Below, in pieces: positions 4,886 to 59,613 of a stretch of DNA of 64,000 bases. Made by a program: the position numbers and the translations under genes. The DNA lies in IMG/VR virus record IMGVR_UViG_3300028888_000049, one strand, 5' to 3'. The notes beneath the pieces were generated by a model that saw only the letters and a list, made by a program, of their open reading frames with translations, was not told the origin of the DNA and made no database searches. This stretch comes from a virus (Duplodnaviria; Caudoviricetes). Each line of letters opens with the position of its first letter. Within the stretch, counting starts at the first letter, position 1.

Positions 4886-7369
4886 ATGGAAACGTTACCT
4901 GAAGATATAGAACGTAAACTAGAAAACTTACCAGTTGTTTCATTTGATGCTAGTGATGAATTACCTCGAGTATTAGCTACTCAAGATTTTATTGATATAT
5001 TCAATTATTACAAAGAACACTTTTTACCAGATGTCCTTAAATCACAACCAGAAATATATCAAAAAGTAAGTCTATATCTAACATTAACCGGTCAAGATAC
5101 AGCATTTGCTAACCAAACAGATCAAGTTCTCTTTAGAAGACCTGTACCAACTATGGAAGAATTTCTAAATGATGACTTCTATCATGGCAAACTAACTGCT
5201 ACAATGTATCCATACTGGAAAGAACAGCTATGTAATATCTTCAGAGAAAATTCACCAGTACGAAAAGTAATCTTTGGAGGATCAATAGGATCGGGAAAAA
5301 GCACCATTGCTCGTAAAGCTATCGTATACTCTTTATACAGAGCATTATGTCTAAGATATCCTAGAGCTGCATTTAACGTCGATGAAGATACTACTCTTGC
5401 TAACTTCATTGTATCAGTTACTATTAAACAAGTATTTGATACTAACTTAATGCCATTCGTAAGTCTATTAAATAATATGCCTTGCTTTCAATCAGTACGT
5501 CATATCACTTCTTTCGATGGTTTTAATTTAGACGATCCTTACTGTCCAATACCATTCTGGGTTGAAAAATCTTCAGGTACTATATTCTTCCCAAATAACT
5601 TCATCTTATCAGCAGGATCACAAGTACAACATACTATTGGTTACTCTATCATTAACTCTTTCTGCTTTACTGAAAACACTAAAGTATATACAAACAAAGG
5701 TATCTTAACATTCAAAGAATTAGAAAACAGATTTAAAAACAATGAATCCTTTACAACAAAATCAATAACAAATACTAAAGAAATTATAGACTCTAACATA
5801 ACTAATGTACAAATAACAGGATATAAACAAGACTTTATAAAAATATATATCACAGACACAGATTATATTGAATGCACTCCCGAACATCCCTTTGTTATAG
5901 CTAATCCAAAAGAAAACGATCCATTCTTAATATACGAAAACGGAATACCATACAAATATACTAAAGACTTAACAGAAAAAGATGAACTAGAAGAAGGAAA
6001 TTCATCTATAAAAATTAAAAAGATCGAAAAAGTACATTATGATGAACCAAAACCAGTCTATGACTTAACAGTAGATAGTAAATACCATAATTTCCTCATC
6101 AATCGTGGTCTTAATATTTTTACCCACAATTGTGATGAAATTAATGAGCGTGGCGTTGAAACGGCTATTAATTTCCTTAACTCAATTGATAACCGCTTCA
6201 GTTCGAGATTCCAAGGCAGTCCGTTTGTCTTCCAAGCGGTTGTCTCTTCGGCTCGAACCACAAACAGTCCTATTGGTGAGTATATTAAGCATTTACCCAA
6301 GAATGATCCTAGTATTGAGATCTTGTCTCCTTGTTTGTGGGAAGTAAAGCCTGACCCGAACTTTATTGGAGATGGCACAACGTTTCCTGTTCTCGTTGGC
6401 AATGGTTCTATACCTTCTAGTATTATTACAGATGAAGCAACTTTAAAGGCTATAGATGAAGGTAAGTATGTCGAGCCAACAGGTTGTAGTTTAATTCACG
6501 TGCCAACAGTTTATAGATCAAAGTTCGAATTACAATTAGATCAGTCTATACAAGATATTGCTGGTATGACTACATCTGATAATAATATGGTATTTAGAGA
6601 TACGTCTAGATTAGAAGATACTGCATTATTACCAGAGTTATATATGGAAGCTAATATACGTGATAATATTAATTTATTAGATTTATTACCAGTAGATAGA
6701 ATATTTGAGAAAGGTCTTAATAATAGATGGTATTTTAAGAGAGCTCCTAATGCACCTAGGTTCTGTCATGTCGACTTAGGTGGATCAGGAGAACGAAATT
6801 GTGATACTGCATTATGTATTGGTCATAAAGAGTGGAAGAATAATACTGTAACTAACATGAGAGATACTATATATGTAGTAGATATGTTAATATTTGTTAC
6901 AGCACCAATTAAAGTAGATTTAAAAGCTATTGAAAACTTTCTTATAGGTCTTGTTAAAGTATATAATGCACCTATACATACTGTTTCTTTTGACCAATGG
7001 CAATCTCTTGTTATGACACAAAATCTAGAAGTATCTGGATGTTTTACTGAGGTTAAAAAAGTATCAGTAGATCTTAAACCAGAACCATATATGAATGCTG
7101 CTAGATTAATGGAATTAGGACAAGTTAAAATAGGCGCATGTCCAAAACTTAAAAAAGAATTAGAAGCTCTTATTTTTGAAAAAGGTAGAGTAACAAGAAC
7201 TACCGAACTTAAAGATGGCGCTGACGTATTAACTGGATTTATTTATGATGCTCAAATGTGTACTGAAGCCACTCCAATAGATAGATATAAAAACGCTGGA
7301 GCAGTTAAATTCGATAAAGGATATAAACTCTATATTAATAAAGATGAATACTTAACAGACTTGTTCTAA
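4886..7369 (+). CDS. terL: terminase large subunit with intein
   Basis: GSIGSGKS Walker A; IINSF/CDE Walker B split by the intein; VVSSA motif III; CHVDLG and KDGADVLTG RNase H-like nuclease motifs. Confidence 0.92.
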   Translation: METLPEDIERKLENLPVVSFDASDELPRVLATQDFIDIFNYYKEHFLPDVLKSQPEIYQKVSLYLTLTGQDTAFANQTDQVLFRRPVPTMEEFLNDDFYHGKLTATMYPYWKEQLCNIFRENSPVRKVIFGGSIGSGKSTIARKAIVYSLYRALCLRYPRAAFNVDEDTTLANFIVSVTIKQVFDTNLMPFVSLLNNMPCFQSVRHITSFDGFNLDDPYCPIPFWVEKSSGTIFFPNNFILSAGSQVQHTIGYSIINSFCFTENTKVYTNKGILTFKELENRFKNNESFTTKSITNTKEIIDSNITNVQITGYKQDFIKIYITDTDYIECTPEHPFVIANPKENDPFLIYENGIPYKYTKDLTEKDELEEGNSSIKIKKIEKVHYDEPKPVYDLTVDSKYHNFLINRGLNIFTHNCDEINERGVETAINFLNSIDNRFSSRFQGSPFVFQAVVSSARTTNSPIGEYIKHLPKNDPSIEILSPCLWEVKPDPNFIGDGTTFPVLVGNGSIPSSIITDEATLKAIDEGKYVEPTGCSLIHVPTVYRSKFELQLDQSIQDIAGMTTSDNNMVFRDTSRLEDTALLPELYMEANIRDNINLLDLLPVDRIFEKGLNNRWYFKRAPNAPRFCHVDLGGSGERNCDTALCIGHKEWKNNTVTNMRDTIYVVDMLIFVTAPIKVDLKAIENFLIGLVKVYNAPIHTVSFDQWQSLVMTQNLEVSGCFTEVKKVSVDLKPEPYMNAARLMELGQVKIGACPKLKKELEALIFEKGRVTRTTELKDGADVLTGFIYDAQMCTEATPIDRYKNAGAVKFDKGYKLYINKDEYLTDLF
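5663..6130 (+). mobile_element. mini-intein (156 aa, no endonuclease domain)
   Basis: starts CFTENTKV; block B ECTPEHPF; block F VYDLTV; ends THN followed by extein Cys. Confidence 0.93.
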
Positions 7370-8472
7370 GAAGCTATCAAACCAAATGTAAAACTCTTCT
7401 AATGTCCAAAACTCATACCAGTTAAGATTATTCTTCTCTGCACACATTCTCTTTTCTGGATCAGTTATAGTCCACACCTCAATACAACTCTCAAAAAAGG
7501 GATCATCTTCGTGACTCTTCCACTCTTCTAATAATTGACGATGATCTTCTCTCTTTTCATCATAAGGACCAAGTATTACATCACCAGACTTTCCATGACT
7601 CATAAAGCCTTGATATTCAATAAAAATATCATATGTTAGTAAATAAAAATCACATAAGTAAGGATAACGATCATCAACATGCTCATATTCTACAGCAATT
7701 CCGCACTTAAAAAACAATTATATATCTCTACTTCAGCATTAGAACGAACTTTAGTACCATCTAAACATTCTTTAGCTTTTACATAAGAACCAAATGTCAT
7801 CGTACCATTTTCTTTTTTTGTCTTATATATTTTAGCCATTCTTTTAGAATCTCTTTCTTTATCTTTAAAAATAGCTTTAAATTCATCTGTTTCTGGATAC
7901 GAATAGACTTTATACTTTTTAAATATACCATCTTTACGAGCTTGAGTTATTTTATCTTTTTCTTCTTGTGATTTATTATTCCAAGTTTCACTACACTTTT
8001 TAGAGTTACAATAATTTTTATCTCCATATCTTTCAAGTTTAGTTTGTTGCATTTTTTCTAATAATTTTTTACTTGCTCCACCATTACCACCGTATAATTC
8101 TACTGTTTTAGCTCTACCATTTAATTTAGGATCCTTTGAAGACCAATTATGTTTTACTCCATGTCGTTGTAACATAGTATTTTCATATTTTTCTTTTGCT
8201 TTTTTCTTATCTTCATCAGACATATTATGTTTTGCTTCAGATAACATTTTAGAATATTCTTCTGTCTTTTTAAAAGCACTATAACATTTCATACAACAAA
8301 AACTATATTTCCAATTTTTCTTTACTTTTTGATAAAATGATTTTCCACAAGTATGACATACTGCATTCGGTTTACGATTATCATAATACTCTTTCTGACA
8401 TTCTTTACAGCAAAACTTTTTAGTATTTTTTATAGTTTTACCACAGTTTAAACACGTTCTTGTAACTTTCAT
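7352..8472 (-). CDS. homing-endonuclease-like gene (Zn fingers, repeats, VSR/DUF559-like nuclease) split by a -1 frame change
   Basis: ORFs 7690..8472 and 7352..7717 join at T_TTT_TTA (7714-7708) into a product whose nuclease domain is collinear with paralog 47687..49141 (CDFY..IEYQG..HG..WT..DP.KR). Confidence 0.8.
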
Positions 8473-8506
8473 AAGATTTCACTCCTTTTTATTCTTTCTA
8501 TATACA

Positions 8507-8603
8507 GTGGCTATTCTCATCCGTACACGATTATTCTTCTGTTTCTAATAACAAAAAAGAGACCATATTTCAGATCTCTTTGTAATTGACTGAGAATAGC
8601 TAC
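8507..8603 (+). ncRNA. candidate ~97-nt structured small RNA
   Basis: 13-bp terminal stem GTGGCTATTCTCA/TGAGAATAGCTAC; starts N6 after TTTCTA. Confidence 0.5.
8553..8581 (-). terminator. intrinsic terminator after the tail tube gene
   Basis: GAGATC-loop-GGTCTC followed by TTTTTT on the minus strand. Confidence 0.65.
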
Positions 8604-8609
8604 CTCTTG

Positions 8610-9161
8610 TCAGTCAATTTCATCGCCCGCCAAGAAGTAGTTGTAACTGAAGCTTGCACTGATAGTTACTGGATCAGAACTAGAAGCACTGATAGTCGGG
8701 AAAGAAATCTCGTTAGGGAATACATCATACAGACGAATATCATAACGAGTCATACCTTCCGGTTTTGGCTCATATACATCAGGATTCAGAAGAGCAATAT
8801 TAACAGTCGCTGTATATTCATCTAACAGAGAAATAGTACCATTTTTGAAGTTATGGTAGGTATTGCACCAAACTTTCAGAGCTTCGGTAATCTCGGAGTC
8901 CCAAACCTCTGTAAATTCAACGGCCCAATCCCCTGCACGCGTCTGCTTGCCGGCGTAGCGCCTTTCGAAGCCACCCCATTGAACTACGGTCTTGTCGCCG
9001 GTGAATTTAGGAAAGCCGTAAGATTGGCAGCGTAGTTCGAGGTCTTTTGTTTTGATAAGTTGTGTAAGAGGAGAGCCAGGTTTAAAGCTGATGACCCAGG
9101 TAGATACGAACATCTTCAAAGGGTCTTTTAAATTTTGTACACTAGCTAAAGTATGTAACAT
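8610..9161 (-). CDS. tail tube protein (T4 gp19-like)
   Basis: LRCQSYGFP, YAGK, W.VEF.E, LYDVFPNEIS, FSYNYF pattern; 183 aa. Confidence 0.8.
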   Translation of the reverse strand: MLHTLASVQNLKDPLKMFVSTWVISFKPGSPLTQLIKTKDLELRCQSYGFPKFTGDKTVVQWGGFERRYAGKQTRAGDWAVEFTEVWDSEITEALKVWCNTYHNFKNGTISLLDEYTATVNIALLNPDVYEPKPEGMTRYDIRLYDVFPNEISFPTISASSSDPVTISASFSYNYFLAGDEID

Positions 9162-9262
9162 GTTTTATATTCCTTATTATAGCTATAATTAATGTAAATC
9201 GATTAACATATATTAGAACAAGGAAAGTGTAAGTTTTAGCTAGTGATATGAAATTTATGGAG

Positions 9263-9343
9263 TTAGAGAGGTATGATTAGTGTAATGATGAAGAGGATGA
9301 TGATTGTGAGTATGAAGAGAGGTGTTGTTATGTTTTGTTCCAT
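9263..9343 (-). CDS. putative 26-aa single-pass membrane peptide
   Basis: MEQNITTPLFILTIIILFIITLIIPL*; AGGGAG RBS 8 nt upstream; below the ORF-track cutoff. Confidence 0.4.
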   Translation of the reverse strand: MEQNITTPLFILTIIILFIITLIIPL

Positions 9344-9636
9344 GTTCGTATCTCCCTGGTATGTATGAAGTGGGGCAAAGATTTGTAGGTTTTGAGATTT
9401 GGAGGTATTATGGTTTGATCCTTGCCCCGTAAGTTTTATTTCTGAGATACATACTATATATACAGTCTATATTAGTTGTTTCTTTTATTATGCCAAAATA
9501 TGTTATTAAGTTTCTTATTTTTAAAAGTAAGCGTTTGGTTATATCACTATATTTTTATAGTCTTAATAATATATTATATTTTTATATAAATTTGAGATAT
9601 ATATGTATATATAAGTATGTATCTTTTTTTCAGAAA

Positions 9637-10449
9637 TTAAGTCCTTTGTTTAATAGAGATGGTAGCTTTATCTGAATGAAGATAAGCTAGTAGATCTCTA
9701 TATTCTTTATTATACCGTATAGCATATTTTGGATAATGTTTTTTACGGTATTGGTATATATTAGATAAGAATTCTTCTTTTGTTTTTGGGTTTATATTAT
9801 TCATAATATTACTTATTATTTTATAGGCGCCCCCAGAACCATGTTGGATGATAGTAGATTTTATTGCAGCTTGGATAGCATTATTTGTCGAACTCCATGA
9901 TGTTACTCTATCTAGTCTTTTGTTGTGACTTTTATCCATACGATAGTAAACTGGTTTTATCTGTGTATCGTGAATAAATTTGTCGTAAAGGTCCCTGAAA
10001 TCGGATTTTCGTGCAAGGGATTTCCAAGTATTAATAAAATGCTTATCACCTTTAAACGCAGCAGGTTGTCCACCGACCGAATTTAGTATATGATAAGTTT
10101 TGGGGGAATGTTCTTGAACGTATTTCATGAAAAAATCAAATGTGGAAGGTTTATTGTTTTTTCGCCAAGTAGATATTTGTAATTTACCATATGAATATCC
10201 ACCGTAACAATCTTTAGATATTGCACTATAACCTTTACCACCATTTTCATATTTTGCTATAATCTCATGATTAGTATTTAAAGCATCATAATTAGTTCTA
10301 GCAGTTGCGTTAATTGAATTTAAAATTAATGTTCCACTTATTACAGCAAATGTCGTCCAAGAGTTAATGTTTATATTTAACATATTCTCTGTCCTAGTTT
10401 GTTGTGCTTCTTTTAATGCTTTTGAAACTATTTCTTCGAATTTTGGCAT
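9637..10449 (-). CDS. lysozyme-fold peptidoglycan hydrolase (VgrG3 C-terminal-like)
   Basis: AKYENGG...SKDCYGGYSYGKLQ...QHG...RYNKE motif series. Confidence 0.7.
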   Translation of the reverse strand: MPKFEEIVSKALKEAQQTRTENMLNININSWTTFAVISGTLILNSINATARTNYDALNTNHEIIAKYENGGKGYSAISKDCYGGYSYGKLQISTWRKNNKPSTFDFFMKYVQEHSPKTYHILNSVGGQPAAFKGDKHFINTWKSLARKSDFRDLYDKFIHDTQIKPVYYRMDKSHNKRLDRVTSWSSTNNAIQAAIKSTIIQHGSGGAYKIISNIMNNINPKTKEEFLSNIYQYRKKHYPKYAIRYNKEYRDLLAYLHSDKATISIKQRT

Positions 10450-10642
10450 AAGATATAGAACAGTGTAATTTTATCAAAATGGATTTCTCCTCTGTTATTA
10501 AAACACAAAAGTTAATATATGTTATTGAAATTAAAGTGTAAAGCCAAAAATTCTTAAAAATTCATATTTTATGGTTTTACATCTGTGAATTAGAGTGATA
10601 TATATTATAATAAGAGTATAAACTTTATAAAGGATATAGTAT

Positions 10643-10879: not shown

Positions 10880-11104
10880 ATGAAACACTTTTATTATGTA
10901 TACAATCGTAGTTGTGAAAAACCAGTTCATAGACATGGTACATTAGAAGAAGCTGTAGTAGAAGCTATCAGATTAGCAGAACAAGAACATAAAAGTTATT
11001 ATGTATTAGAATCTGTAGCTAAAATTGTTTATAATCATGATGACAGTTCTACTATATATGAAGGACGTCAATTAGAAATGAAAGAACAAAAACTGAATGA
11101 CTAA
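10880..11104 (+). CDS. small phage protein of unknown function
   Basis: P..RH.TLEEA..EA.RLA...YVLE pattern; AGGAG RBS. Confidence 0.65.
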   Translation: MKHFYYVYNRSCEKPVHRHGTLEEAVVEAIRLAEQEHKSYYVLESVAKIVYNHDDSSTIYEGRQLEMKEQKLND

Positions 11105-11696
11105 AGTAAGTATAATCGTACCAGTATATAATACAGAAAAATATTTATGTAGATGTTTAGATTCATTAGTTAAACAAACACTAAAAGATATTGAAATTAT
11201 TTGTATTGATGATGCTAGTACAGATAATAGTAAAAATATCATTAAAGAATATGAAAAGAAATATACAAATGTAAAAGGATATTATCTTACTATAAATAAA
11301 GGCGTTGCAAATGCTCGTAATATTGGACTAAATAAAAGTCAAGGTGAGTTTATAGGCTTTTGTGATTCTGATGATTTTGTTGATGAAGGTTATTTTGAGA
11401 ATTTATATAATCAATCTAAAACATATGATTTAATTAGAGGAATACGTTTAATAGATAAAAGACATGGTAAAAACGAATATGGATGTTTAGTACCTAGTAT
11501 AATAAGAAGAACTTTTTTAATACAAAATAATCTTAGATTTCCAAATAAAAATATCGGTGAAGATAGTACATTAAAAAGATGGATATATAATCATACTGAT
11601 AAAATTTTAGAAGTAGAAGATAATGGTCAATATTATCATTATATGAAAAGAGCAGGATCACTGTCTAATTATAATATAGAGGAGAAAAATGAGTAA
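11097..11696 (+). CDS. glycosyltransferase family 2
   Basis: VSIIVPVYN, IDDASTD, ARNIGL, FCDSDD, GED. Confidence 0.92.
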   Translation: MTKVSIIVPVYNTEKYLCRCLDSLVKQTLKDIEIICIDDASTDNSKNIIKEYEKKYTNVKGYYLTINKGVANARNIGLNKSQGEFIGFCDSDDFVDEGYFENLYNQSKTYDLIRGIRLIDKRHGKNEYGCLVPSIIRRTFLIQNNLRFPNKNIGEDSTLKRWIYNHTDKILEVEDNGQYYHYMKRAGSLSNYNIEEKNE

Positions 11697-12384
11697 ACCT
11701 TTAGTATCAATTATTTTAACATTATATGAAATTAAAAAAGAATATTTATTAGAATGTCTTGAATCTATATTAAATCAATCTTATGATAACATAGAAATAA
11801 TTGCGATAGATGATTGCTCTCCTACAGTTAAATATGATGATATAACAAAATTATCTCCAAAAATACATCTTTATCATAATAAAACTAATCTTAAAATGAA
11901 TAAGACAGTAAATAAAGGTTTTTCATTAGCTAAAGGTAAATATATAATAAGATTAGGTAGTGATGATATATTTGCTAAAACAATGATTGAAGAAGAAGTT
12001 AATTTTCTTGAAAAATTTCACGAATACGGAGCTGTTTGTTGTGAATTAGAAAGATTTGGAAGAAGAACTAACGTAATACATCGACCAAAAGAATGGAATC
12101 TTAATAAAATCATAAATGAAAGACAATTAGCTGGTACTGGTTATGCTGGTGGTATGATGTTCAGAAAAGATTTATTAAAAAATTGTTCTATCGATGAAAG
12201 TCTTAAAATATGTGAAGATTTTGATTTTCAACTACAGATATTACATCATATGCCTATCGCTAGTATTCATAAAGTACTTTATTACTATAGATCACATGAA
12301 ACAAACATTTGTAGATCAGTATCAACGAATGACCGACTTACCTTAATTGATAAAATCTTAGAAAAGCATAAATTACTTTTATAA
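11689..12384 (+). CDS. glycosyltransferase family 2
   Basis: VSII, IDDCS, LGSDD, EDFDF, LYYYRSH. Confidence 0.9.
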   Translation: MSKPLVSIILTLYEIKKEYLLECLESILNQSYDNIEIIAIDDCSPTVKYDDITKLSPKIHLYHNKTNLKMNKTVNKGFSLAKGKYIIRLGSDDIFAKTMIEEEVNFLEKFHEYGAVCCELERFGRRTNVIHRPKEWNLNKIINERQLAGTGYAGGMMFRKDLLKNCSIDESLKICEDFDFQLQILHHMPIASIHKVLYYYRSHETNICRSVSTNDRLTLIDKILEKHKLLL

Positions 12385-12449: not shown

Positions 12450-12487
12450 TCTCTTTTTAATTGAGTACTATATGGAGATATAGAATT

Positions 12488-13930
12488 ATGTCTAGTAAAT
12501 ATGATTGTATTTCAGATGAAATTTTAATAGAATTATATATTAACCAAAATTTACCAATATCAGTAGTAGCCAAAAAATTAAATGGCAGTAAAACACAAAT
12601 TAGACTCTTACTTATAAAAAGAGGTATTATAAAATCAAAAGAATTACGTCATCAACAATATACTAATACTTTAAATGAATTTTATGCAAATCGTACAGAA
12701 GAGCAATATCTTCATAAAAGTAGAGCTTGTAAAGATAGATGGAATAATTCTACAGAAGAAGAAAAAATAGAATGGATGAAGCCATTAAATAAAGTAAATG
12801 CTCATAGATCTCCTGAACATGAAGCTGCATTAATAAAATCATATAAAAATTTTTTAAAAAATGAATCAAAAGAAGATAGAGCTATACGTTTAGAAAATAT
12901 AAGAATTAGTACTACTAAAGCTATTAAAAATATGTCTCCTGAAACAAAAGCAAAAGCATCTGAAAAAAGAAAAAACACTTGGAATAATAAAACTGAAGAC
13001 GAAAAACGAAAAATTAAAGAAAAAAGACAAAAAACTATGTCTGCAAAATCATTAGAAGAAAAATCAAGTTATATAGAAAAAGGAAGACTTACAAAACTAA
13101 AAAACGGAACGCTTTTTACATCTAACGATGAAAATATATTTATAAACTATTTAAATGAATTAGGCTATAAAACTAGTAAATTTTATTTAAAAGAACATAT
13201 AAATACGACTACAAAATCCGAAATAGATATCTATATAGATGAACAAAAACTCGGGATTGAAATTAATGGAATATACTTTCATAGTATAAATGGAAAAAAT
13301 CATCGTGACAAATATTATCATTATAATAAAACAGAAGATGCAAGATTAAATAATTTCAGTTTAATTCACTTATGGGAAGATTGGATACATACAAATTTAG
13401 AAACATGTAAAAATATATTATTTAATAGACTAGATTTGTCTCATACAAAAACATTAGACACTCTTAATTATATACAAATAAATCAGAATGTATTTGAAGA
13501 TTTAAGAAAAAATTTTACACTAGATTATTCAAAAACTTATGCTAATATGTATAAAGTAATGAATAATACAGAATGTTATGCCATTCTAGGCTTGAATATT
13601 AAAGACAGAATCATAGAATTTAATTTATTCGAAAATCCTTTATACAAAATATCAAACTTAATACAAAGTACTATTAAATTCATAATAAATACTTTTAATC
13701 CAAATAAAATATATACATCATTAATGAGAGATATCTATATTGCTGATAATTATCTTAATAATAGCTTCGTCCTAGTAAATTATACAGAGCCAAATAGATT
13801 TTTAATAAAAGGCAATTACCAAAGATTTTATACAGATATCTCTGTTTCTGAATTAAAAAATCAAGAAAATACAAATAATATATTTGAATGTTATGGATCT
13901 GGATATATAAAATTAGAATATAAAGAATAG
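12488..13930 (+). CDS. homing-endonuclease-like protein (HTH, basic repeats, VSR/DUF559-like nuclease)
   Basis: EIDIYI...GIEINGIYFHS...HYNKT...LIHLWEDW; C-terminal CYGSG; ATG 12488 with GGAG RBS preferred over TTG 12461. Confidence 0.8.
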   Translation: MSSKYDCISDEILIELYINQNLPISVVAKKLNGSKTQIRLLLIKRGIIKSKELRHQQYTNTLNEFYANRTEEQYLHKSRACKDRWNNSTEEEKIEWMKPLNKVNAHRSPEHEAALIKSYKNFLKNESKEDRAIRLENIRISTTKAIKNMSPETKAKASEKRKNTWNNKTEDEKRKIKEKRQKTMSAKSLEEKSSYIEKGRLTKLKNGTLFTSNDENIFINYLNELGYKTSKFYLKEHINTTTKSEIDIYIDEQKLGIEINGIYFHSINGKNHRDKYYHYNKTEDARLNNFSLIHLWEDWIHTNLETCKNILFNRLDLSHTKTLDTLNYIQINQNVFEDLRKNFTLDYSKTYANMYKVMNNTECYAILGLNIKDRIIEFNLFENPLYKISNLIQSTIKFIINTFNPNKIYTSLMRDIYIADNYLNNSFVLVNYTEPNRFLIKGNYQRFYTDISVSELKNQENTNNIFECYGSGYIKLEYKE

Positions 13931-14013
13931 TTTTTATGACTTTTGACTAGTTCTATATAATCAGTTATATAATTTTATAAGTTTTATTTGCAAATCAAAC
14001 TAGGATTTTCTAA

Positions 14014-16818
14014 ATGTCAGATAAATTAAAGAAAGATCAAGCTTCAGGTAGATATTTTTTATATGAATCTACTGAATTTAATGTAAAACCAGTAATTTCT
14101 AAAGATTTAAAAGAATCTCTAAAGATTTCAAACGGAAAAGCCGGCACTCTTATCGTAAGAAACGTACCAGTCACAATTCTTAATAGAGAAAATATGAACG
14201 GGCGTATCTATACAACACAAGTTTTGGAAGAAGCTATTGCTGAATGTAAGCGTCTTAACAAATTTGCTGATAAGATGCTTTTATCGAAGCCGGATGAACA
14301 TCCGGAAGATTCGTTCATCCCTCCTTCAAAAGCATCACATGCTGTTATTAATTGTTATATTAAAAAGAATGTACCGATCGTAGTTGAAGGTAAAAAAGAA
14401 CGTCATGATGTTCTTTTCCAAGACTGGGAAATCTTTAATACAGCAAATGGTAAAGATATGCGTGCATTAGTAGAAGCTGGTGTATCATTTGGTGTTTCTA
14501 TTCGTGGTTTAGGCGATCTAGAAGGCAAATACGTAAAAAATTATAGTTTACTTGGAACTGATCTTGTAGGGAACCCAAGTTCTTCTACGTTTTCTGGTAT
14601 GCCCGTTGCTGAATCTGTTGTTGAATCTGTAAATGAAGATAAGTCTAAAAAGCCATTAAAAGAAGAGTTTGTTGTTTCTAGTTCTTCAACAACTGTTATG
14701 AAAGATATAGAACAAGCTTCTAAATTAGCTATGGAAATTGATGAACTTAATTATGGTACTGTTGTAAAGACATCTACAAAAGTTGATGATGAAACAGATC
14801 CTAAGACTGGTGTTTCTACAAGTTTAGTTACGTTTGAAGCTGAAACAGAAGATAAAGCAACTGATTTAGATACAGCTTTAATGTTAGCTAAAAGAGCTAT
14901 TTTAAATGGTAAAGTTGATATTGATTCTGTTACTATTGAAAACGTTAAAGAAGATCAACCGAAAGAATCTGCTGAAAATAATGACGCTTCTGTATTAAAA
15001 GAAGAAGAAAAAGATCCAATGTATTTAGCTTTGAAGAAAAGTAATTATTATCGTTTTAACACACCTGAAGAATATATGAAGTTTATAAATGATAATGTTA
15101 AATATCTTGATAATGGTTATTCATTACCAGAAGCTGAAGAAATTTTTGCTGAGTATACTGATGGTAAAATTAGTCCTGAATTAGCTTGTCATAAACTTGA
15201 AGGATTTGTTGGTAATATTATAAATAAAACTTTTAATAAAGATATTCCAGCATTAAATGAAGATGAGAACAATGATGATGCTGATGATACTGAGCGTTAT
15301 GGAGTATGTGGTTGGTGCGGTGAAAAATTGCCATTATCTGATTTAAAGAAAGAAAAAGATTTAGGATATGTATGCAATCATTGTGCTAAAGGTCTTGCAT
15401 CTCGTGAAGGTCCGCTTAATTTTGAAGATGAATATGTACCTGAATCTAAAATGAATAAAATGAGTACTGTAAAAGAAGCTAAAGAAGAAAAAGAAGAAGA
15501 TCCAAATACAGGTAAGAAATTTATCTTAAAAACTCCCCAAGGTTTTGTCGCTATGGATGGTAATGCATTGGTATTTAAACAAAATCCTAAAGAAGCATTA
15601 CATTTTATTGTTGGCAAAGAAGAAACGGGATTAGTACATCTTTCTAAAGTACAAGAAATTTTAGATACTATGGGTGTCTATGATGTAGAAAAGTACTATA
15701 AAAAAGATATCACAGATATTAGTGCTCCGGAAGAAGGTAACGGAATTGCTCCTAAGGGTGATTCTGAATTTGCTCCAAAAGAAGAATCTAGTGAAGAATT
15801 AACAGAAGATAATGGAAGCAATACAAGATTTTCTGCACAAGTTGCTTATGATAAAGGTAATGGTAATCTTGAGACAAATACTGTTCCTGTTTCTGGTGTT
15901 GAATTAGATAGTATTCTTGCCGAAGTAGGTAATTTATATGATATGAAATCGCAAAAAGCAGATGGTACTGTATCTATTAAAGTTACTGATACACAAACTG
16001 GACAAGTTTACCAATATAATAAACAAAATAATTCATTAGATCCTATACAAAGTGCTGATACAAATATGGCAGATGTTCAACAAGAACCACAACTCGATGC
16101 TCCTATTCAAGAAGCTAATGGTGAAATTGAACAAAAAGCTAATGAATTAAAAGTTGACTTAGATAAAGATCATTCAGTTACAAAGAAGTTTGATACTGTA
16201 GCTCAAGCTAGTATTGCAAAAGCTGGTATGGAACAAGGTAAATTGAATGGTGACGTCATGCTCAGTGAAGAAGATCAAAAATACGAAGATGCTCCTGATT
16301 ATGGTGAAGAAAATGTTGAATTTGGTTGGTATGCATTAAGTCCTAATACTGATGCTCAGGGTAGACCTGATTTAATTGGACCATTTGAAAGTGAAGAAGA
16401 AGCAAATAATGCTCTTGCTGAAGTAATTGATATGGTTGAAATCTTTGAAGTTACTCCAGATGGTATTCACCAAGGAAATGATATGGCATTAGCAGCAGAG
16501 TCTAATTTAGATGAAAAGATTTTCTCTAATCCTACGAACCCTTCTGATGAATTTGTATCTGTTCCATTAAAAGATAGTGATAATTTAAAATTTAGTTTAG
16601 ACAATATTGATTGGGATATTGATAGTGTTGTTAATAAACTTTATGATGGTGAATTTGTAGATATTGACAATTTACCAGATCATTTAGAAGTTGAATTAAC
16701 AGAAGATGAATTCAAAAATGTTGCTAATGTTGAAGAATTAATGAACGTTATCAAAAATAAAGCTTCAGAACAAATCGGTATTAAAATTAATAATGCCGTT
16801 TTAGATAGAATTGCTTAA
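14014..16818 (+). CDS. prohead protease (T4 gp21-like) with ~740 aa acidic extension
   Basis: NMNGRIY, HP, SH, GVSIRGLG, DLVGNPS; later CGWC..CNHC zinc ribbon. Confidence 0.88.
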   Translation: MSDKLKKDQASGRYFLYESTEFNVKPVISKDLKESLKISNGKAGTLIVRNVPVTILNRENMNGRIYTTQVLEEAIAECKRLNKFADKMLLSKPDEHPEDSFIPPSKASHAVINCYIKKNVPIVVEGKKERHDVLFQDWEIFNTANGKDMRALVEAGVSFGVSIRGLGDLEGKYVKNYSLLGTDLVGNPSSSTFSGMPVAESVVESVNEDKSKKPLKEEFVVSSSSTTVMKDIEQASKLAMEIDELNYGTVVKTSTKVDDETDPKTGVSTSLVTFEAETEDKATDLDTALMLAKRAILNGKVDIDSVTIENVKEDQPKESAENNDASVLKEEEKDPMYLALKKSNYYRFNTPEEYMKFINDNVKYLDNGYSLPEAEEIFAEYTDGKISPELACHKLEGFVGNIINKTFNKDIPALNEDENNDDADDTERYGVCGWCGEKLPLSDLKKEKDLGYVCNHCAKGLASREGPLNFEDEYVPESKMNKMSTVKEAKEEKEEDPNTGKKFILKTPQGFVAMDGNALVFKQNPKEALHFIVGKEETGLVHLSKVQEILDTMGVYDVEKYYKKDITDISAPEEGNGIAPKGDSEFAPKEESSEELTEDNGSNTRFSAQVAYDKGNGNLETNTVPVSGVELDSILAEVGNLYDMKSQKADGTVSIKVTDTQTGQVYQYNKQNNSLDPIQSADTNMADVQQEPQLDAPIQEANGEIEQKANELKVDLDKDHSVTKKFDTVAQASIAKAGMEQGKLNGDVMLSEEDQKYEDAPDYGEENVEFGWYALSPNTDAQGRPDLIGPFESEEEANNALAEVIDMVEIFEVTPDGIHQGNDMALAAESNLDEKIFSNPTNPSDEFVSVPLKDSDNLKFSLDNIDWDIDSVVNKLYDGEFVDIDNLPDHLEVELTEDEFKNVANVEELMNVIKNKASEQIGIKINNAVLDRIA

Positions 16819-42533: not shown

Positions 42534-42551
42534 TAAAAAATCTCCTTTTAT

Positions 42552-50014: not shown

Positions 50015-50049
50015 GGATTTATTTCCTTATTTTCTTGGTTATTTTTTTA

Positions 50050-50499
50050 TTAGTAACCGTATTTGTCTTCTTTATAATCTTCGTAAGTCCAAATTTTTTC
50101 AGGATCATCATCCCAGATATTCATATCTTTTGTGAATACCTTTACTACTTTTGCTTGTTTATTTGGATTTTGTTGTAAGTATTCATTAGCAATAGCTTGT
50201 GCTTCTTCTTCCGTATCCCATAGATTCTTAATTTCTGGTTCATAGTCTGTTGTTAAATTATTATTAACTTCTAGTGTACGGTTTCCATCTTCTGTATTTA
50301 AGTCTATATATTCTTTACCAAACTTTGGAACTATCTCTACGAATACTGCATACTTTGTTGCTGCTGGTTCTTGTGCATCTAACCAATCTTCGTATGCACC
50401 ATCTTCTTCATAATCAGGATTTGTAGTTCTCCAATAATCGTAAGATCTTGGCAACTCTTCTTTTAATATGCTTTCTACAATTTCTCTTATTTTAGACAT
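50050..50499 (-). CDS. acidic putative internal virion protein
   Basis: N-terminal IREIVESILKEE motif; late promoter 50557-62. Confidence 0.55.
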   Translation of the reverse strand: MSKIREIVESILKEELPRSYDYWRTTNPDYEEDGAYEDWLDAQEPAATKYAVFVEIVPKFGKEYIDLNTEDGNRTLEVNNNLTTDYEPEIKNLWDTEEEAQAIANEYLQQNPNKQAKVVKVFTKDMNIWDDDPEKIWTYEDYKEDKYGY

Positions 50500-50707: not shown

Positions 50708-52201
50708 TTAATTACCAGTAGAATCATTTCCGTAAATATTGTAACCAAGCTCTTTATTTGCAAAATATTCATCAGAATCATATTGCATAGATTCTGGAGC
50801 AGTTTTATATTCTTCATAAGTTAAGTCAGGATTATTATACCATTTTTCAAATTCTATCAAATTAAACCATTCAATTAACTTTAATCCAGCTTCTTTAGCA
50901 ACTTTCCTTTTTAATGGTTCTAATTCTGTCCAAGTATGTAAGACTTTTTCATAATAATTACCTGGTTTAGCTTTAGATTTTAACCATAACAAATCTTTCT
51001 GACATCCTGGATCTGTTGGATCATACTTTCTCCTACCATGTCGCCAATTTTTGTTATAGTTAAAAGCTGTATCTGAGTCAGGATCGTAGAAATCGATTTG
51101 CCAATGTCTATGAGTTTCAGGAGATATAAAACGATCATCTGTATATGACATTATAATATTAGGATATTTCTTCTTTAAGAGATCAAAAATATAAAGTTCG
51201 TCTGAAGAACTGTTATATCCAGTTTTCTTATCAAATATCTTTTCATCGCCTTCATCTAAAATACTCTCATTAGAAGCCATTTTTTGGTTCGTGGTGAGCT
51301 TTTTCGTTTCTTTAGTATAAGTTATAGGCAATTCTGGATATAGCTCCTTAAACAAGTTTTTACCGCGTTCTAGAACGTCTTGTGGAGTATTTAATGATGC
51401 TATATCACTAAGATTTAATGTTTTATCCCAATCTTTATTATTTACAAAATCTGAATTTATTATTAGACCTGTTAGATATTTGCTAACATTTTGTAAAGTA
51501 TGTACTTCATCATCATTTATTAAGTCTAAATCTGTATTACCTTTATTTAATCTATCTGTAAAGTTTACTTTATTCTTTTTATTAGGAATAACAACAGTTT
51601 CATACTCTGAATGTTTTTTTATTGTATTCTGTGAAAAAGGAGCATAGTCAAAAGGTTTAGTTATGTTATTTTCTGATATTTTATCACCATCAAATACTAA
51701 AATAAAAGGATTATTATCATATATAAAGTTTTTATTTCTTGTAAATGATATACCTGGTTCTAAGTGAGATTTCAAAGTATTTGTTCTTAAGATATTAGTT
51801 AAACCTTTTAATGTAGTAGTGTGATATAAAGGACCTACTTGTTTAGCTTCATTCATTAAAGATTCTTTTACATCATCATTAAGTTTTTCTAATATATCCT
51901 CTAATTTATCTTGATTTGTTACTTTTACTTGATTGAATAGAGAATCATTAGACATCATGATGATAGGTTCTTGTAAGTCTTTTATGATTCTTTGTAATGT
52001 ATCTAATTGTTGTGGAGTTATATCTTCAATAGCTGGTAGCATAATAGTTTTAGTAATAGTATCATAGATTATGTTATTGTTATCATAGAGATCTTCATCA
52101 ACATAATCATCTTCTATTGTTTCTTGACCATTTTGACCTATAATAACTAATTCAATACTATTTTCAGCAAGATCAAAAAATTCATCTAACAAAGTAGACA
52201 T
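50708..52201 (-). CDS. multidomain putative virion protein: ART-like domain plus degenerate VSR-like nuclease
   Basis: LYHTT...ISFTR...EYE; IDFY...WRHG...WT...PLKR; domains separated by ESLMNE and ESILDE. Confidence 0.6.
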   Translation of the reverse strand: MSTLLDEFFDLAENSIELVIIGQNGQETIEDDYVDEDLYDNNNIIYDTITKTIMLPAIEDITPQQLDTLQRIIKDLQEPIIMMSNDSLFNQVKVTNQDKLEDILEKLNDDVKESLMNEAKQVGPLYHTTTLKGLTNILRTNTLKSHLEPGISFTRNKNFIYDNNPFILVFDGDKISENNITKPFDYAPFSQNTIKKHSEYETVVIPNKKNKVNFTDRLNKGNTDLDLINDDEVHTLQNVSKYLTGLIINSDFVNNKDWDKTLNLSDIASLNTPQDVLERGKNLFKELYPELPITYTKETKKLTTNQKMASNESILDEGDEKIFDKKTGYNSSSDELYIFDLLKKKYPNIIMSYTDDRFISPETHRHWQIDFYDPDSDTAFNYNKNWRHGRRKYDPTDPGCQKDLLWLKSKAKPGNYYEKVLHTWTELEPLKRKVAKEAGLKLIEWFNLIEFEKWYNNPDLTYEEYKTAPESMQYDSDEYFANKELGYNIYGNDSTGN

Positions 52202-55102: not shown

Positions 55103-58100
55103 TATTCCATGCCTTCTAATGATAGTTCTTTACTTGATAATTGATAATAAGCATCCTTTAATCTATCTAAGAACTTATTAGCTCTTAATTTTTTGAAAAG
55201 TAAATTTCCAATACCAAATTCACCTTCCGATTTAAGACTTTCTCTACGAATTGCACCAAAAGCTTGCCATAAAGCTTCAATAGTACTCAAATCTTGACTT
55301 TGAATAGCATCTTCAATAGTTTTTACAATATTTTCATAATATGGCAAATTAACATCATTATATTCTTTTTCTTTATATTCTGGTAATTTAATCCATTGAT
55401 CATCTTTTACTGAATAAATACCAGTTGTAACTAATGGTTCACTTGTTAATTCTGCACCAACTTCTACAGGAATACCTTTAATCATAATGTTATATTTACT
55501 ATTAAATACTGTTTTGGCACTTTGTAAATATCTTTTAAAAATTTCAGCATTAACACCTGCATTTTCTACATCAAAAACTAAATGTAAATCAATGTCTGAA
55601 TCTTCATTATAGTTATAATTAGCACAACTACCTGTGAAATAAATATCTTCTGGATCAAACTGAATGTTTAAATTATCCAAAAACTTATAAGCAATTTCTA
55701 ACATCGCCGCTCTTACATCTTTTTTGAGTTTTTCGTTTTCAAAAAGATTCGGATTTAATCGACTGTTTGTAATACCTTCTGTAATTTGTCCATATTGATT
55801 CAAACCTGCTTCTGCTGATTGTAAATTCAAAAAATCTGCACCTTTATTTACATAAGATTCTTCAACTTGATTTTCATCATTCATTAAATTTTCAAAAGCT
55901 TTAGCAAATAATGTATCATCAATGTCAGCAAGAGTTTTACCATCTTGTTTTAACAACTTACGAACTTCATTCTTAACTTCATTTTCTTTTTCATTGATTT
56001 TAGCATCTATTTCAGGTTTATATTTATTAATCAAAAATTCTTTACGATCATTAATATTTTCAGGATTACGAATACCTGCTTGTTCATATTCTTGAATAAC
56101 TTTATCTTTATTTTCGTCTTTAAACTGATTAGCAAGTGCTTCTAATTCTTCAGCTGTCTTAGAATTTTGAAACTTCTTTAGATATTGTTGTGTTTGCATA
56201 TCTAAAGCTTTATTAATAGTTGCTTGAATTTCAGATTCAATTTGATTATCTACTTTATTTTCTACTTCACTATTAACTTCATTTTTAATTTCATCACTAA
56301 TATTTTGAGGTAATGCAATAGAAGCATTAATATCAGAAACTTCATGATTTTGTATATCTGGATTATAACCTGTCATAAGACTTCTATATTCATCTTGAGA
56401 TAATGGTTTTCCATCACTAGTAAAGTATTGATAACTGTTGTTAGAAACACCTTGAGGATTTCTATCTGGATTTTCAACAGTCTTACCTAATTTATTTAAT
56501 AAACTCTTTTCTAAATCTTTATCTGAATACTTTTTATTCAAAATATCAACAAACTGTCCTTCCATATCACCTTCACCACGCATATTTTTAGGATCAACAG
56601 TCTTGTTCTTATTATATTCGTATTCTTCAGGATCACTTAGCATTTTATGAAGATAAGCTTTTTCTTTAGGTGTAAGAATGTCTTTACGTAACTGATCACT
56701 TAAAGCATAAATCTTTTCTTGTCTTTCTTTCTGAAATCTTTGATAATCATTAAGACCATCTTCACCAATTAAAGGATCATCAGCTTTATATGGATTTTGT
56801 TTTACATTTAATTCATCAATTTTATGCATAATAGCATCATTTTTGGCTTTTTGACGTTCTTGATATTTTGAATTGTCTAAATAATTTACATATCTAGTCT
56901 CAATATCTTTTTTACGCTTATAATCCATATAATTTAAATATAAAGTTTCCAATATTTGTAAAAGTTCTTTTCTTTCATCAATTAATTCTTTACCACGAGT
57001 ATCATAAATATTTTTTAATCTACTATAAAATTCTAAAGAAGTTTCATCTGGCTCTTTTTTAGTAGCGTTTATATTAGATAACTCGGCATTAATCTCATCT
57101 ATTCTTTTTGTAGCACTGTTAATACTTTTAAGCATTTCTGGACTAGCATCTTTCCAGTAATTCATATTTTTATAGTTTTCATTAACAATAGGTACTAATG
57201 CTACTAAACTACCTCTCTGAGACTGTAAATTGCGTAGATTCGTAACAAACTTATTATCTTTCTCTAAAGACGGTTTTTTAGCTAAAGCCGCTTGATATGC
57301 TTGAATTGCAGTATTTGTCTTGTCTAACTGAGATCTAAGATTATTACGTCTTTGTTTTTTATATTTATATTCATCTCTATTTGAAGAAAATAACTTTCTG
57401 ACAATACTATTAATAACATCATTTTTAGAAGCAATAAATGTTATATTACCATCTTCGTCTTTTATGTACTTCCTACTTAATTGAACAGGTTTTCCATTAT
57501 CAGTAACAGTAAAAGAAGCATTATTACCGAATTCACCATCTAATTCTTTTAATACTTCAACAGAAAAGTTCTTATTAGAGAAAACATCATTGTTATAATT
57601 AGGTGTCTCAATATCATCAAATGTTTTAGTCTCTACAACATTACCATCAGCATCTAAACCACGAATTACAACATCATGCTGATCCATATATTGCCAATCA
57701 CCATCTGGATCATACTGAGCATCCCTCTCTCTTTGAACATCATTTCTCTTAGCAACCTTTACAACTCTTTGACCAGGTTTTAAATCTAAATCACGATGTT
57801 GTGTTGTAACATAATTATTTTTAGGAGCGTCTTTACCTAAAGACATCTTCATAAGATCAGATTTATTTAATTCAGTTAATAAAGATTCTGTAACAGATTC
57901 ATACTTTTTCATTAGTTTACCTTGTCCAATAGAGTTAGGATCGCCTTTTAGTCTTTCACGATTTAATTTAGGAATTTCATTTAAGATCTTTACATAGTAT
58001 TCGCCAAGAATATTGTTATTTTTCCATTTGCTGACTGAAGTGCTAAGCATCAAATATGCATCAAAGGAGCTTTTAGCAAACTTTTGAATAAATTCATAAA

Positions 58101-58320
58101 CACCAGTTTCATAACATTTACGCAAAATAAGACCTCTTTTACGCATTTTTGTATAAAAGTCTTTTTTATCGTAAAATCTTCCTTTAACTACAGAAAATTT
58201 ATTCTTATCTGGATCAAGAACGATACCAGTATAATTTTCCATAGTAGCATCTTCAGAACCTGCTTTAGCATATTCATCTAGAGTAATATGTTCTAAATTT
58301 TCAAAAATATCGATTGACAT
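55102..58320 (-). CDS. large putative virion protein with C-terminal Pol-beta-family nucleotidyltransferase
   Basis: YFTGSCANYNY..DSDIDLH...IPVEV...GIYS...W...GNLLFKKLR. Confidence 0.78.
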   Translation of the reverse strand: MSIDIFENLEHITLDEYAKAGSEDATMENYTGIVLDPDKNKFSVVKGRFYDKKDFYTKMRKRGLILRKCYETGVYEFIQKFAKSSFDAYLMLSTSVSKWKNNNILGEYYVKILNEIPKLNRERLKGDPNSIGQGKLMKKYESVTESLLTELNKSDLMKMSLGKDAPKNNYVTTQHRDLDLKPGQRVVKVAKRNDVQRERDAQYDPDGDWQYMDQHDVVIRGLDADGNVVETKTFDDIETPNYNNDVFSNKNFSVEVLKELDGEFGNNASFTVTDNGKPVQLSRKYIKDEDGNITFIASKNDVINSIVRKLFSSNRDEYKYKKQRRNNLRSQLDKTNTAIQAYQAALAKKPSLEKDNKFVTNLRNLQSQRGSLVALVPIVNENYKNMNYWKDASPEMLKSINSATKRIDEINAELSNINATKKEPDETSLEFYSRLKNIYDTRGKELIDERKELLQILETLYLNYMDYKRKKDIETRYVNYLDNSKYQERQKAKNDAIMHKIDELNVKQNPYKADDPLIGEDGLNDYQRFQKERQEKIYALSDQLRKDILTPKEKAYLHKMLSDPEEYEYNKNKTVDPKNMRGEGDMEGQFVDILNKKYSDKDLEKSLLNKLGKTVENPDRNPQGVSNNSYQYFTSDGKPLSQDEYRSLMTGYNPDIQNHEVSDINASIALPQNISDEIKNEVNSEVENKVDNQIESEIQATINKALDMQTQQYLKKFQNSKTAEELEALANQFKDENKDKVIQEYEQAGIRNPENINDRKEFLINKYKPEIDAKINEKENEVKNEVRKLLKQDGKTLADIDDTLFAKAFENLMNDENQVEESYVNKGADFLNLQSAEAGLNQYGQITEGITNSRLNPNLFENEKLKKDVRAAMLEIAYKFLDNLNIQFDPEDIYFTGSCANYNYNEDSDIDLHLVFDVENAGVNAEIFKRYLQSAKTVFNSKYNIMIKGIPVEVGAELTSEPLVTTGIYSVKDDQWIKLPEYKEKEYNDVNLPYYENIVKTIEDAIQSQDLSTIEALWQAFGAIRRESLKSEGEFGIGNLLFKKLRANKFLDRLKDAYYQLSSKELSLEGME

Positions 58321-58347
58321 AAAATAAAAGTCCTAAATAAACATTTA

Positions 58348-59250
58348 TTATTTAGAACTCTTTCGTTTCTGTAATTTACTGTTCCACCATCCTTCACCTG
58401 GACAATCTTTTTGAAATTTCTGCTCTACTCCATTTGTCCACCATTTTCTTCCATATGCTGGATTACCAGAACCAGAATGTTTTTCTTTCATTACTTGCTT
58501 TTGATGCTCTGTTTGAGGTTTATGTTTAACTTTCTTTTGTGCTTCAGACATATGTTTTTTCATATCATCTGTGATTACTTTCTTTTTAAAAACTTTATAA
58601 CCAGGTTCAAATCCTTCAGGCTGTTCAAATCTAAAGACATTTTTCACATCATTATGATACCATTTTCTGCCTTTTTGACATCTTCCTTTCTTTTTATTAA
58701 CTTCTTTAGACCATTTCTTTCCAGTGTTTATTTTCCTTAAAAGTTCTTTAGTTTCATTTGATCGTTTAGTTCCTTTAGCATATTGATTACCTTTTTGAGC
58801 TTCTGATATATGCTTGCAATGTTCTTTTGTCTTTTTATATTTTTTAAGAGCATCACTAATAGCTTTTTTATGTTCTTTAGTCTTTTTCAAATTTTTAAGA
58901 TTATTACCGTTAATATATGAGATATTACCACCTTCTGTAATATTCCAGCAATAGTCTTTTCCAAGATGTTCATGGATTATTTCATATTCTTTAATATTTA
59001 ATTCTTCATGAGTTTCACACCAAGCTAATATTTCACATTTTATTAGATCTTTAACTTTATCCTTAATTCTTCTATAAGACTTTGATCCAGTATACTTAAA
59101 CAACCAAGCTTTTATTTTAGAGCTACTACCTATATAGTTTGGATCAATGTTCGGATAATTATTATAGATATGCTGTCCCCAATAATATCTTTCACCTTTA
59201 GAGGTAATTATTGTGGTTTTGTAGATATAACCTATGTATTGTTTATTCAT
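58348..59250 (-). CDS. Seg-like GIY-YIG homing endonuclease
   Basis: GYIYKT...YWGQH...YIGSS...E...WNITEGG; NUMOD3 and WWTNG repeats. Confidence 0.85.
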   Translation of the reverse strand: MNKQYIGYIYKTTIITSKGERYYWGQHIYNNYPNIDPNYIGSSSKIKAWLFKYTGSKSYRRIKDKVKDLIKCEILAWCETHEELNIKEYEIIHEHLGKDYCWNITEGGNISYINGNNLKNLKKTKEHKKAISDALKKYKKTKEHCKHISEAQKGNQYAKGTKRSNETKELLRKINTGKKWSKEVNKKKGRCQKGRKWYHNDVKNVFRFEQPEGFEPGYKVFKKKVITDDMKKHMSEAQKKVKHKPQTEHQKQVMKEKHSGSGNPAYGRKWWTNGVEQKFQKDCPGEGWWNSKLQKRKSSK

Positions 59251-59613
59251 TTAGTCTTTATTACTCAGGTCTTGTAATTTATCGTAAGGAATATGTAAGA
59301 GTGTAATAATAAATGCTTTTACATCGGTAGTTAAACGTTTATTAAATAAATCTTTAATTTTAGATATATATTCTAAGTCTTCTTCAGTTAAATATTGTTT
59401 AATGGAAGCTAAAGTAATTTTTGACATATTTAATTTACGAATAGCATTTACTGAAATAAAATCCAATTTAGTTCTAGGTTTTTTCATTAAATATCCAAAG
59501 AATTTATTCCAGTTAATATTTTCTTTAGCAGATTTTGTATTAACTCTTACTTTTACATTTACTGAAATTCTAGGGGTTTTTCTACCATCACCAAAAATAT
59601 CAATTTTAGACAT
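59251..59613 (-). CDS. hypothetical basic protein
   Basis: 120 aa, AAGGAG RBS. Confidence 0.7.
   Translation of the reverse strand: MSKIDIFGDGRKTPRISVNVKVRVNTKSAKENINWNKFFGYLMKKPRTKLDFISVNAIRKLNMSKITLASIKQYLTEEDLEYISKIKDLFNKRLTTDVKAFIITLLHIPYDKLQDLSNKD

Follow-up and report, generated by a model that had tools for sequence, protein, structure and literature searches.

The structural module and its endonuclease genes

The window analysed here, a stretch of 64,000 nt, contains the structural module of a jumbo myophage with approximately 29 % GC. The source phage is uncultured and is represented by a 263-kb parent contig; its relatives are gut and rumen phages of 227–249 kb. Free-standing homing endonuclease genes, recognized as stand-alone intergenic genes that encode a nuclease domain, lie next to conserved genes (Table 1). 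Nuclease calls were based on matches to GIY-YIG (PF01541), phrog_314 and phrog_3339, and the PD-(D/E)XK type was assigned by similarity within the clade.

Table 1. Endonuclease genes, cores and flanks in the window
Feature	Position	Strand	Remarks
terL centre, left flank	4900–6100		+ strand short of T, with excess C and A; intein lies inside
terL mini-intein	5663–6133	+	
terL overlap core	6100–6400		GC3 0.39; cut predicted here
PD-(D/E)XK-type endonuclease gene	7352–8472	-	Frameshift near 7700 in the window
Tube-gene overlap core	8610–9050		GC3 0.53 at 8900–9050
Tube centre, right flank	9050–10200		G/T-rich; takes in non-coding 9241–9339
Free-standing endonuclease gene	12461–13930	+	phrog_3339; absent in L159 and L155
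Co-conversion tract	13914–15450		~84 % identity to L159 vs ~95 % elsewhere
Protease core	14180–14330		Moderate
Fibre centre, left flank	22900–24775		T loss on +
Fibre overlap core	24775–24955		Predicted cut window; hairpin ~24781–24835
GIY-YIG/NUMOD3 endonuclease gene	25130–26389	-	Right-flank bias in part
Fibre right flank, past endonuclease gene	26477–27400		A loss, G/T excess
Tube-like gene, left flank and core	42000–43260		Core 43150–43260; hairpin ~43141–43230
GIY-YIG endonuclease gene	43259–44071	-	L161 lacks it; L166 allele 62 % identical
Neck far left flank, past endonuclease gene	46750–47697		T loss greatest here
PD-(D/E)XK-type endonuclease gene	47687–49141	-	Compositionally neutral
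Neck overlap core	49265–49760		Predicted cut near 49650–49760
Neck right flank	49760–50450		A loss, G/T excess
Weak one-sided candidate	57200–58170		Switch z ~3.1; GC core and hairpin both lacking
GIY-YIG-type endonuclease gene	58348–59250	-	phrog_314

The endonuclease genes vary between related genomes, copies being lacking in L159, L161 and L155 and other alleles being present in L156, L158 and L166; the PD-(D/E)XK-type gene beside the neck gene, for example, is absent in L161 and replaced by another allele in L156, L158 and L166. In L159 and L163 the gene at 7352–8472 corresponds to a single ORF of 383 aa whose N-terminal part differs. In L163 the terL intein is split at ~5993–6003 around a 338-aa GIY-YIG gene, of which the L159 intein retains a 48-aa remnant that the window copy has lost. 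Flanking host sequence has been co-converted, in the protease region (relative to L159) and in L158, where a divergent tract runs from the insertion (~49200) to ~49755.

Strand-skew switches and endonuclease insertions

An earlier note, made by eye, had described GC-rich cores inside conserved genes, with a + strand rich in A/C to their left and in G/T to their right. The statistic was the third-position residual after correction for codon family and strand of the gene, and significance was assessed by within-family permutation (95 % null maximum 3.8–3.9). The skew switches are real. Peaks of the A/C-left, G/T-right type were found at ~6100 (z 7.2), 14225 (5.4), 24775 (8.9), 43325 (4.6), 47600–47950 (5.5) and 49725 (5.5), giving significant switches at approximately 6.2, 14.2, 24.8, 43.3 and 49.7 kb; their survival after correction rules out gene orientation and amino-acid bias as the cause. 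The same cores were present in independent assemblies at ~95 % identity and are therefore not an assembly artefact.

The individual flanks described earlier were also recovered, both A/C-rich (5660–6050, 47000–47400 and 23900–24700; keto z -6.3, -7.9 and -6.8) and G/T-rich (49750–50050 and 26480–26700; +5.0 and +5.7), the count of 32 G and no C at 9241–9339 was exact, and the pattern did occur in genes of both orientations. Segments 47000–47400 and 26480–26700 belong, as far flanks, to the neck and the fibre centre respectively, and endonuclease genes must be excised before distances to cores become meaningful. In terL, fibre and neck the switch falls within a single ORF. At the coordinates proposed for the GC-rich cores, GC3 z was 8.2 in terL, 8.8 in tube, 3.8 in protease, 4.8 in fibre, 5.0 in tube-like, 6.2 in neck and 1.2 at 58020–58170, the last being not significant. 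The tube gene had the top GC3 peak (z 11), yet only a modest switch (z 3.5). The proposed fade over ~1 kb was too short, as the G excess extends for ~1.2–2 kb and the C deficit until ~2.5 kb. A further peak at 39788 was one-sided and had no endonuclease nearby.

The signal is a loss of A (A>G and A>T) on the strand leaving the centre, greatest where A or T is next, and the asymmetry flips at a symmetric centre over 1–2 kb. The outward-reading strand is G/T-rich, a polarity of origin type. The two one-sided tracts overlap by 180–480 bp (P 0.97–1.0 at the four strong sites), and this overlap forms the GC core. At the neck the fitted edge of T loss (49745, CI 49730–49805) coincides with the end of the L158 tract.

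The claimed proximity to endonuclease genes held within the window: five of the seven top peaks lay ≤600 bp from an insertion (0.9 expected, p = 6e-4), or six of seven if the terL-intein GIY-YIG site of L163 is counted (p = 1e-4). The stacked z of the endonuclease-linked switch was 10.3, and all six endonuclease junctions outranked 96 % of other gene junctions. The GIY-YIG gene that the intein has lost, rather than the gene lying 1 kb away, is the likely partner of the terL core; in L155 the tube-side endonuclease is present, but the GC core is absent from both tube and terL. The distant lineage G001/G008 (53 % aa identity) shows the neck footprint too, with a different endonuclease 73 bp downstream of neck in G008; the footprint was absent in orthologues without an endonuclease just downstream; no neck segment was nearer to G001/G008 than to other sequences.

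The genome-wide test covered the relatives' genomes only, where several seeming switches were traced to a one-sided codon bias in the gene for the major capsid protein and were masked. With capsid and tube codons masked the stacked z was 3.9 (p ~0.001) across these mutually non-independent genomes, most single endonuclease junctions being flat. The scar is not universal: none of 15 endonuclease loci in T4, taken as a positive control, had a genome-wide significant switch, the td exon (z 3.8) and oriF (z 3.9, same polarity) giving weak hints. Given T4 and most of the relatives' loci, composition alone is no general predictor of targets, contrary to what had been proposed.

Hairpins and substitution patterns

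Imperfect hairpins, overlooked in the earlier sequence-only description, were found in five of the seven cores (0.27 expected, p ≤ 1e-5). The excess persisted against a null preserving amino acids and local composition, which rules out a by-product of complementary flank composition, and the mRNA strand was not consistently preferred, which rules out mRNA-only structures. The terL hairpin (~6200–6258) has a compensatory change in L163, and the two protease hairpins (~14248–14324) differ from the L159 allele, which is endonuclease-free, by compensatory non-synonymous changes. At the neck (~49631–49731 and ~49436–49521) three alleles form hairpins in different registers. These differences in neck, protease and terL amount to clustered changes that build or lengthen inverted repeats; in the tube-like gene substitutions relative to the endonuclease-free L161 are clustered at ~43215–43245. 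Hairpins with allele-specific compensatory changes are a new observation. No significant hairpin was detected in the tube core (p 0.057). Another hairpin, at 16601, has no switch. No 7–8-mer was enriched in five or more cores and a promoter scan was at chance level, ruling out a shared promoter or origin motif.

Among outward-strand singletons, A>G (115/2904) exceeded T>C (63/4168). The outward G/A odds ratio was 3.56, reaching 4.7 before A/T and 1.15 before C/G, as in a next-nucleotide effect (PMC4770217); this context was not found at the G001 neck site, where n was small. The G/A ratio of 3.56, a C/T odds ratio of 0.67 and an A>G/T>C ratio of 2–2.6 together imply a net GC-ward shift. At fourfold sites T was favoured over A (OR 1.5). 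Outward A>G was above background, raised 1.0- to 1.8-fold, and T>C below it, in estimates that assume equilibrium and reversibility, are confounded by sweeps and use three-sequence parsimony, which may mis-polarise changes. Apparent G>A flux was low near the centres, and G>A was not raised on the outward strand. Total divergence was flat: the anticipated peaks of synonymous divergence did not appear (pairwise 0.09–0.11 in flanks vs 0.09 in the background), so a shallower genealogy would have to offset any extra mutation.

Probable break repair, rival explanations and known systems

The switches probably represent accumulated scars of endonuclease-initiated break repair (probability approximately 0.6). 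The link to endonucleases, the outward polarity and, from gene presence/absence and co-conversion tracts, a break-repair origin, all part of the earlier reading, are retained; its origin-like polarised replication is not, since a mixture of directions predicts a background centre and G and C are instead both tripled there (piG = piC = 0.33 vs 0.117), with the skew faded by ~2–2.5 kb. Resection or trimming of broken ends with priming from 3′ ends is a known pathway, and here each 3′ end would prime outward synthesis after a neighbouring homing endonuclease had cut inside the conserved gene, some hundreds of bases from the point where its own gene is inserted. In T4, seg and mob endonucleases have distant cut sites with gap processing (PMC2988022) and co-conversion reaches up to 2 kb (PMC2790892). 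On the strand running 5′–3′ away from the presumed break, A is lost to G and less often to T, as composition and strand-biased polymorphism show. The most plausible cause is misinsertion opposite template T that is extended when A/T is next; alternatively, a displaced single strand may have been deaminated. The retained 3′ overhang was rejected as the site of damage, the polarity being wrong: that strand gains C and A. Pfam searches in three relatives gave no match to a polymerase of family A, B or C. Where the observed outward tracts overlap, both A and T would be lost, leaving the GC-rich core. Template switching near broken ends may have produced the allele-specific hairpins and clustered changes, which may also confer resistance to recutting; quasipalindrome mutation occurs during break repair (10.1101/2023.08.09.552703). 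Gain, loss and exchange of endonuclease genes, evident among the relatives, would outpace scar formation, leaving endonuclease genes often unscarred and endonuclease-free alleles still scarred.

It is unlikely that hairpin-marked fragile or priming sites came first, with breaks, fork stalls and short bidirectional synthesis, and gathered endonuclease genes secondarily. The hairpins with compensatory changes, the skew retained in endonuclease-free alleles (G001, L161) and the weak oriF switch of T4 would fit such an order of events, but skew without a hairpin occurs in the tube core and at the neck of G001/G008, the 16601 hairpin lacks a switch, the neck registers differ, the cores share no motif and the L158 tract edge coincides with the centre. 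Resident endonucleases might instead cut or nick their own genome, at hairpin-marked, partly immune sites, so frequently as to provide routine primers for recombination-dependent replication with a low-fidelity start; this is quite unlikely, and if true the skew would chart domesticated break-origins in readable form.

Distinctly unlikely is a biased resolution without mutation, in which heteroduplex repair during homing and selection for cleavage resistance fix G/C strand-dependently near the cut. Flat divergence, low apparent G>A flux near centres and substitution clusters relative to endonuclease-free alleles agree with it, but the one-sided G excess would need a strand- and base-specific repair bias, the excess of T over A at fourfold sites and the A/T-next context would also have to be explained, and escape selection cannot act 1–2 kb from the site. 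Ordinary local origins, whose bidirectional forks reveal normal leading/lagging asymmetry, are very unlikely: they account for the polarity and for the opposite departures of outward T>C and A>G from background, but not for the enriched centre or the net GC-ward shift, nor for a signal that is gone within ~2 kb, inside coding sequence and without a common motif. Imported segments or gene-specific codon bias are hardly credible, for although co-converted divergent alleles and one-sidedly codon-biased capsid and tube genes in relatives exist, the mirror symmetry is strand-defined, spans gene borders and non-coding DNA, flips within single ORFs and is missing from most orthologues.

Free-standing homing endonucleases cut at a distance from their own genes, which makes their targets difficult to locate. 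If the switches are break-repair scars, the sequence itself narrows predicted targets in this phage's lineage to windows of 100–500 bp, and the scars also record vanished genes (the terL GIY-YIG gene and the G001 neck site). Outward A>G with A/T next, an overlap core and hairpins would together be a natural signature, in three parts, of break repair in prokaryotes, making the error-prone strand and polymerase step in homing testable, and selfish elements would be altering codon usage across kilobases in genes for essential virion proteins. A literature search of incomplete coverage found no such scar described in phages.

At replication origins, too, the G/T-rich strand reads away from the centre, but the phage switches are local (<2.5 kb), repeated every 3–15 kb and raised in GC at the centre. 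Intronless homing in T4-like phages (PMC2988022, PMC2790892) likewise involves genes for GIY-YIG and other nucleases in intergenic positions next to conserved genes, with a patchy distribution, flank co-conversion and a reported tract limit of ~2 kb that matches the fade; a strand-asymmetric composition scar is not described in the text available. Mobile introns of fungal mitochondria (Repar and Warnecke 2017, PMC5378118) raise adjacent SNP density and likewise mould host genes via mutagenic repair or co-conversion, but with a diversity gradient of ~70 nt, whereas the phage signal is strand-specific and extends over kilobases with overall divergence flat. Quasipalindrome template switching (10.1101/2023.08.09.552703) similarly alters imperfect inverted repeats by multi-nucleotide events at repair sites; it is experimental in yeast, whereas in the phage allele comparisons suggest it and selection for structure is possible. 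Human meiotic break hot spots (Hinch et al. 2023, PMC7615360) share the symmetric centre, strand-asymmetric ~2 kb flanks and A>G changes, with error-prone repair and template switching invoked, but they report de novo mutations and the phage a long-term compositional record. The single-stranded 3′ overhang left of a hot-spot break is on the forward strand, which in the phage gains C and A, placing the bias on the outward, newly made strand.

Skew switches and endonuclease insertions

Synonymous third positions were scored against codon-family expectation, with permutation within families. At about 6.1, 14.2, 24.8, 43.3, 47.6–47.9 and 49.7 kb the + strand turned from A/C-rich to G/T-rich, with switch scores above the genome-wide null. 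These composition switches are real, and the switch statistic was more dispersed in the window (sd 1.7) than in ten related genomes (1.0–1.3). Five of the seven sites listed in an earlier note were recovered (~6.1, 14.2, 24.8, 43.3 and 49.7 kb), whereas the tube gene, with the top GC3 peak, had only a modest switch and the 58 kb site a weak one; the skewed stretches it quoted were confirmed (9241–9339 has 32 G and no C). A one-sided T-to-A bias at ~39800 (z 3.6), with neither a GC core nor an endonuclease gene close by, is possibly an old site or a gene-specific bias. An A/C-rich patch with raised GC3 lies at 3500–3750, at the overlap of two ORFs.

The window is a virion module of a jumbo myophage (~29 % GC) on a 263 kb contig; its relatives are gut and rumen phages of 227–249 kb. 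It carries six free-standing endonuclease genes, a far higher density than in the relatives.

Free-standing endonuclease genes of the window
Position (nt)	Observation
7352–8472	Frameshift near 7700; in the counterpart of relatives L159/L163 the ORF is intact, the nuclease end shared and the N-terminal part swapped
12461–13930	
25130–26389	
43259–44071	
47687–49141	
58348–59250	

The 497-aa gene at 50708–52201 has at its end a PD-(D/E)XK-like domain; in all relatives this domain is a conserved ~200-aa protein. The gene product is probably a head-completion-type protein, not a mobile endonuclease.

With endonuclease genes excised, five of the seven top peaks lay <600 bp from an endonuclease insertion (p 6e-4), in support of the link to endonuclease genes proposed in the earlier note, and the biased flanks continued past these genes on the far side. 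The genes at 12.5, 43.3 and 47.7 kb are mostly neutral in composition because they are absent or replaced in other relatives. Co-conversion tracts were detectable among relatives; in L158 the tract began at the insertion and reached ~49755, the edge fitted at the neck gene being 49745. The neck footprint recurred in the distant lineage of genomes G001 and G008, with a different endonuclease gene downstream in G008, and was absent where the orthologue had none downstream. The signal stacked over relatives was weak yet present (z 3.9, p ~0.001). On this sequence evidence the switches are, with a probability of about 0.62, scars of endonuclease-initiated break repair at predicted cut sites: an endonuclease would cut the neighbouring gene, and repair of the break would leave a strand-asymmetric scar.

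terL and hairpins in the cores

The terL gene of the window contains a mini-intein (5663–6133). Among 95 %-identity relatives, L163 has a GIY-YIG gene within a split intein at ~6000 and L159 a 48-aa remnant, the window having none, which probably explains the terL peak. The split intein of the fractured terL (L163:1371–5306) is re-fused in the window; terL is also in two pieces in G001 and G006, the C-piece of G006 beginning in the intein end. In L159/L163:1024–2936 the P-loop of terL holds a further intein, which is lacking in the window (~5290–5303).

The GC-rich cores were listed in the earlier note, the hairpins in them going unnoticed. An unbiased folding scan of coding windows (n=1324) placed 11 below the cut-off of z −2.6, matching five of the seven cores against 0.27 expected, and this excess held under a null preserving amino acids and local left/right composition. 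Three neck alleles each had a different fold register, and protease and terL alleles showed compensatory differences, part of them non-synonymous; no consistent mRNA-strand preference of the hairpins was found. The main rival explanation makes the hairpins the cause of the switches, not their product. Hairpins were not necessary for skew, the tube and G001 neck genes being skewed without one, nor sufficient (16601). We read them as putative products of template switching in the course of break repair, a process demonstrated in yeast (10.1101/2023.08.09.552703); they were possibly retained through resistance to cutting.

The strong hairpin without a switch (16600–16710) lies in the 3' part of the protease gene. 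The G001 neck gene (L069, 116583–117389) has a complete footprint and no adjoining endonuclease gene; its near relative G008 has one. An 18-nt inverted repeat (94 %, 9096–9113/9342–9359) between the early coding region of the tube gene and its own upstream leader offers possible long-range RNA pairing.

Strand polarity and its sources

Counted base by base, T was lost from the left flank and replaced by C and A, and A was lost from the right flank and replaced by G and T. Read outward, on the strand running 5'–3' away from the centre, both flanks are one single process (odds for G/A 3.56, fourfold T/A 1.52, C/T 0.67). The G excess was 3.75-fold, decaying to near background by 1.2–2 kb. In a two-breakpoint fit the left and right tracts overlapped by 180–480 bp at four strong sites; the GC core is therefore this overlap and no separate feature. 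The G excess was 4.7 where the next outward base was A/T and 1.15 where it was C/G, matching the next-nucleotide effect on a growing strand (PMC4770217), from which we infer such an effect during strand growth. Misincorporation on the outward-growing strand would then yield the G excess.

Deamination of the displaced strand is a possible alternative source, since C is also depleted outward. Ordinary replication origins, with mixed normal fork directions, are disfavoured: G and C at twofold sites were each 0.33 in cores (background 0.117), which such a mixture cannot yield. Damage to a retained 3' overhang was rejected, the predicted polarity being opposite.

Outward singletons among strains numbered 39.6 per 1000 for A>G and 15.1 for T>C (background ~30). 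Pairwise divergence did not rise, giving none of the synonymous peaks that the earlier note had offered as a check, so the extra A>G would have to be cancelled by sweeps.

A QueC-like gene (1139–1894) and two family-2 glycosyltransferases (11097–12384) suggest that the phage may modify its own DNA, which could touch the mutation spectrum. Polymerases A, B and C had no Pfam match in three near-complete relatives (G001–G003), whose replicative polymerase is divergent or was overlooked by the Pfam search.

Comparison with known systems

Phage T4 (NC_000866) showed zero switches at genome-wide significance at 15 endonuclease loci, with hints of the same polarity, sub-significant genome-wide, at oriF (~115500) and at td near the intron (~144800); the relative L155 has the tube-side endonuclease gene without the cores. 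The earlier proposal that composition alone marks endonuclease targets is thus narrowed to a prediction for this lineage and is not general. A literature search of limited coverage found no phage precedent for such a footprint. Human meiotic breaks likewise have strand-asymmetric flanks (PMC7615360), whereas the phage footprint lies on the other strand; it is also unlike the SNP gradients flanking fungal introns, which are short (PMC5378118). The setting itself is that of known intronless homing (PMC2988022, PMC2790892).
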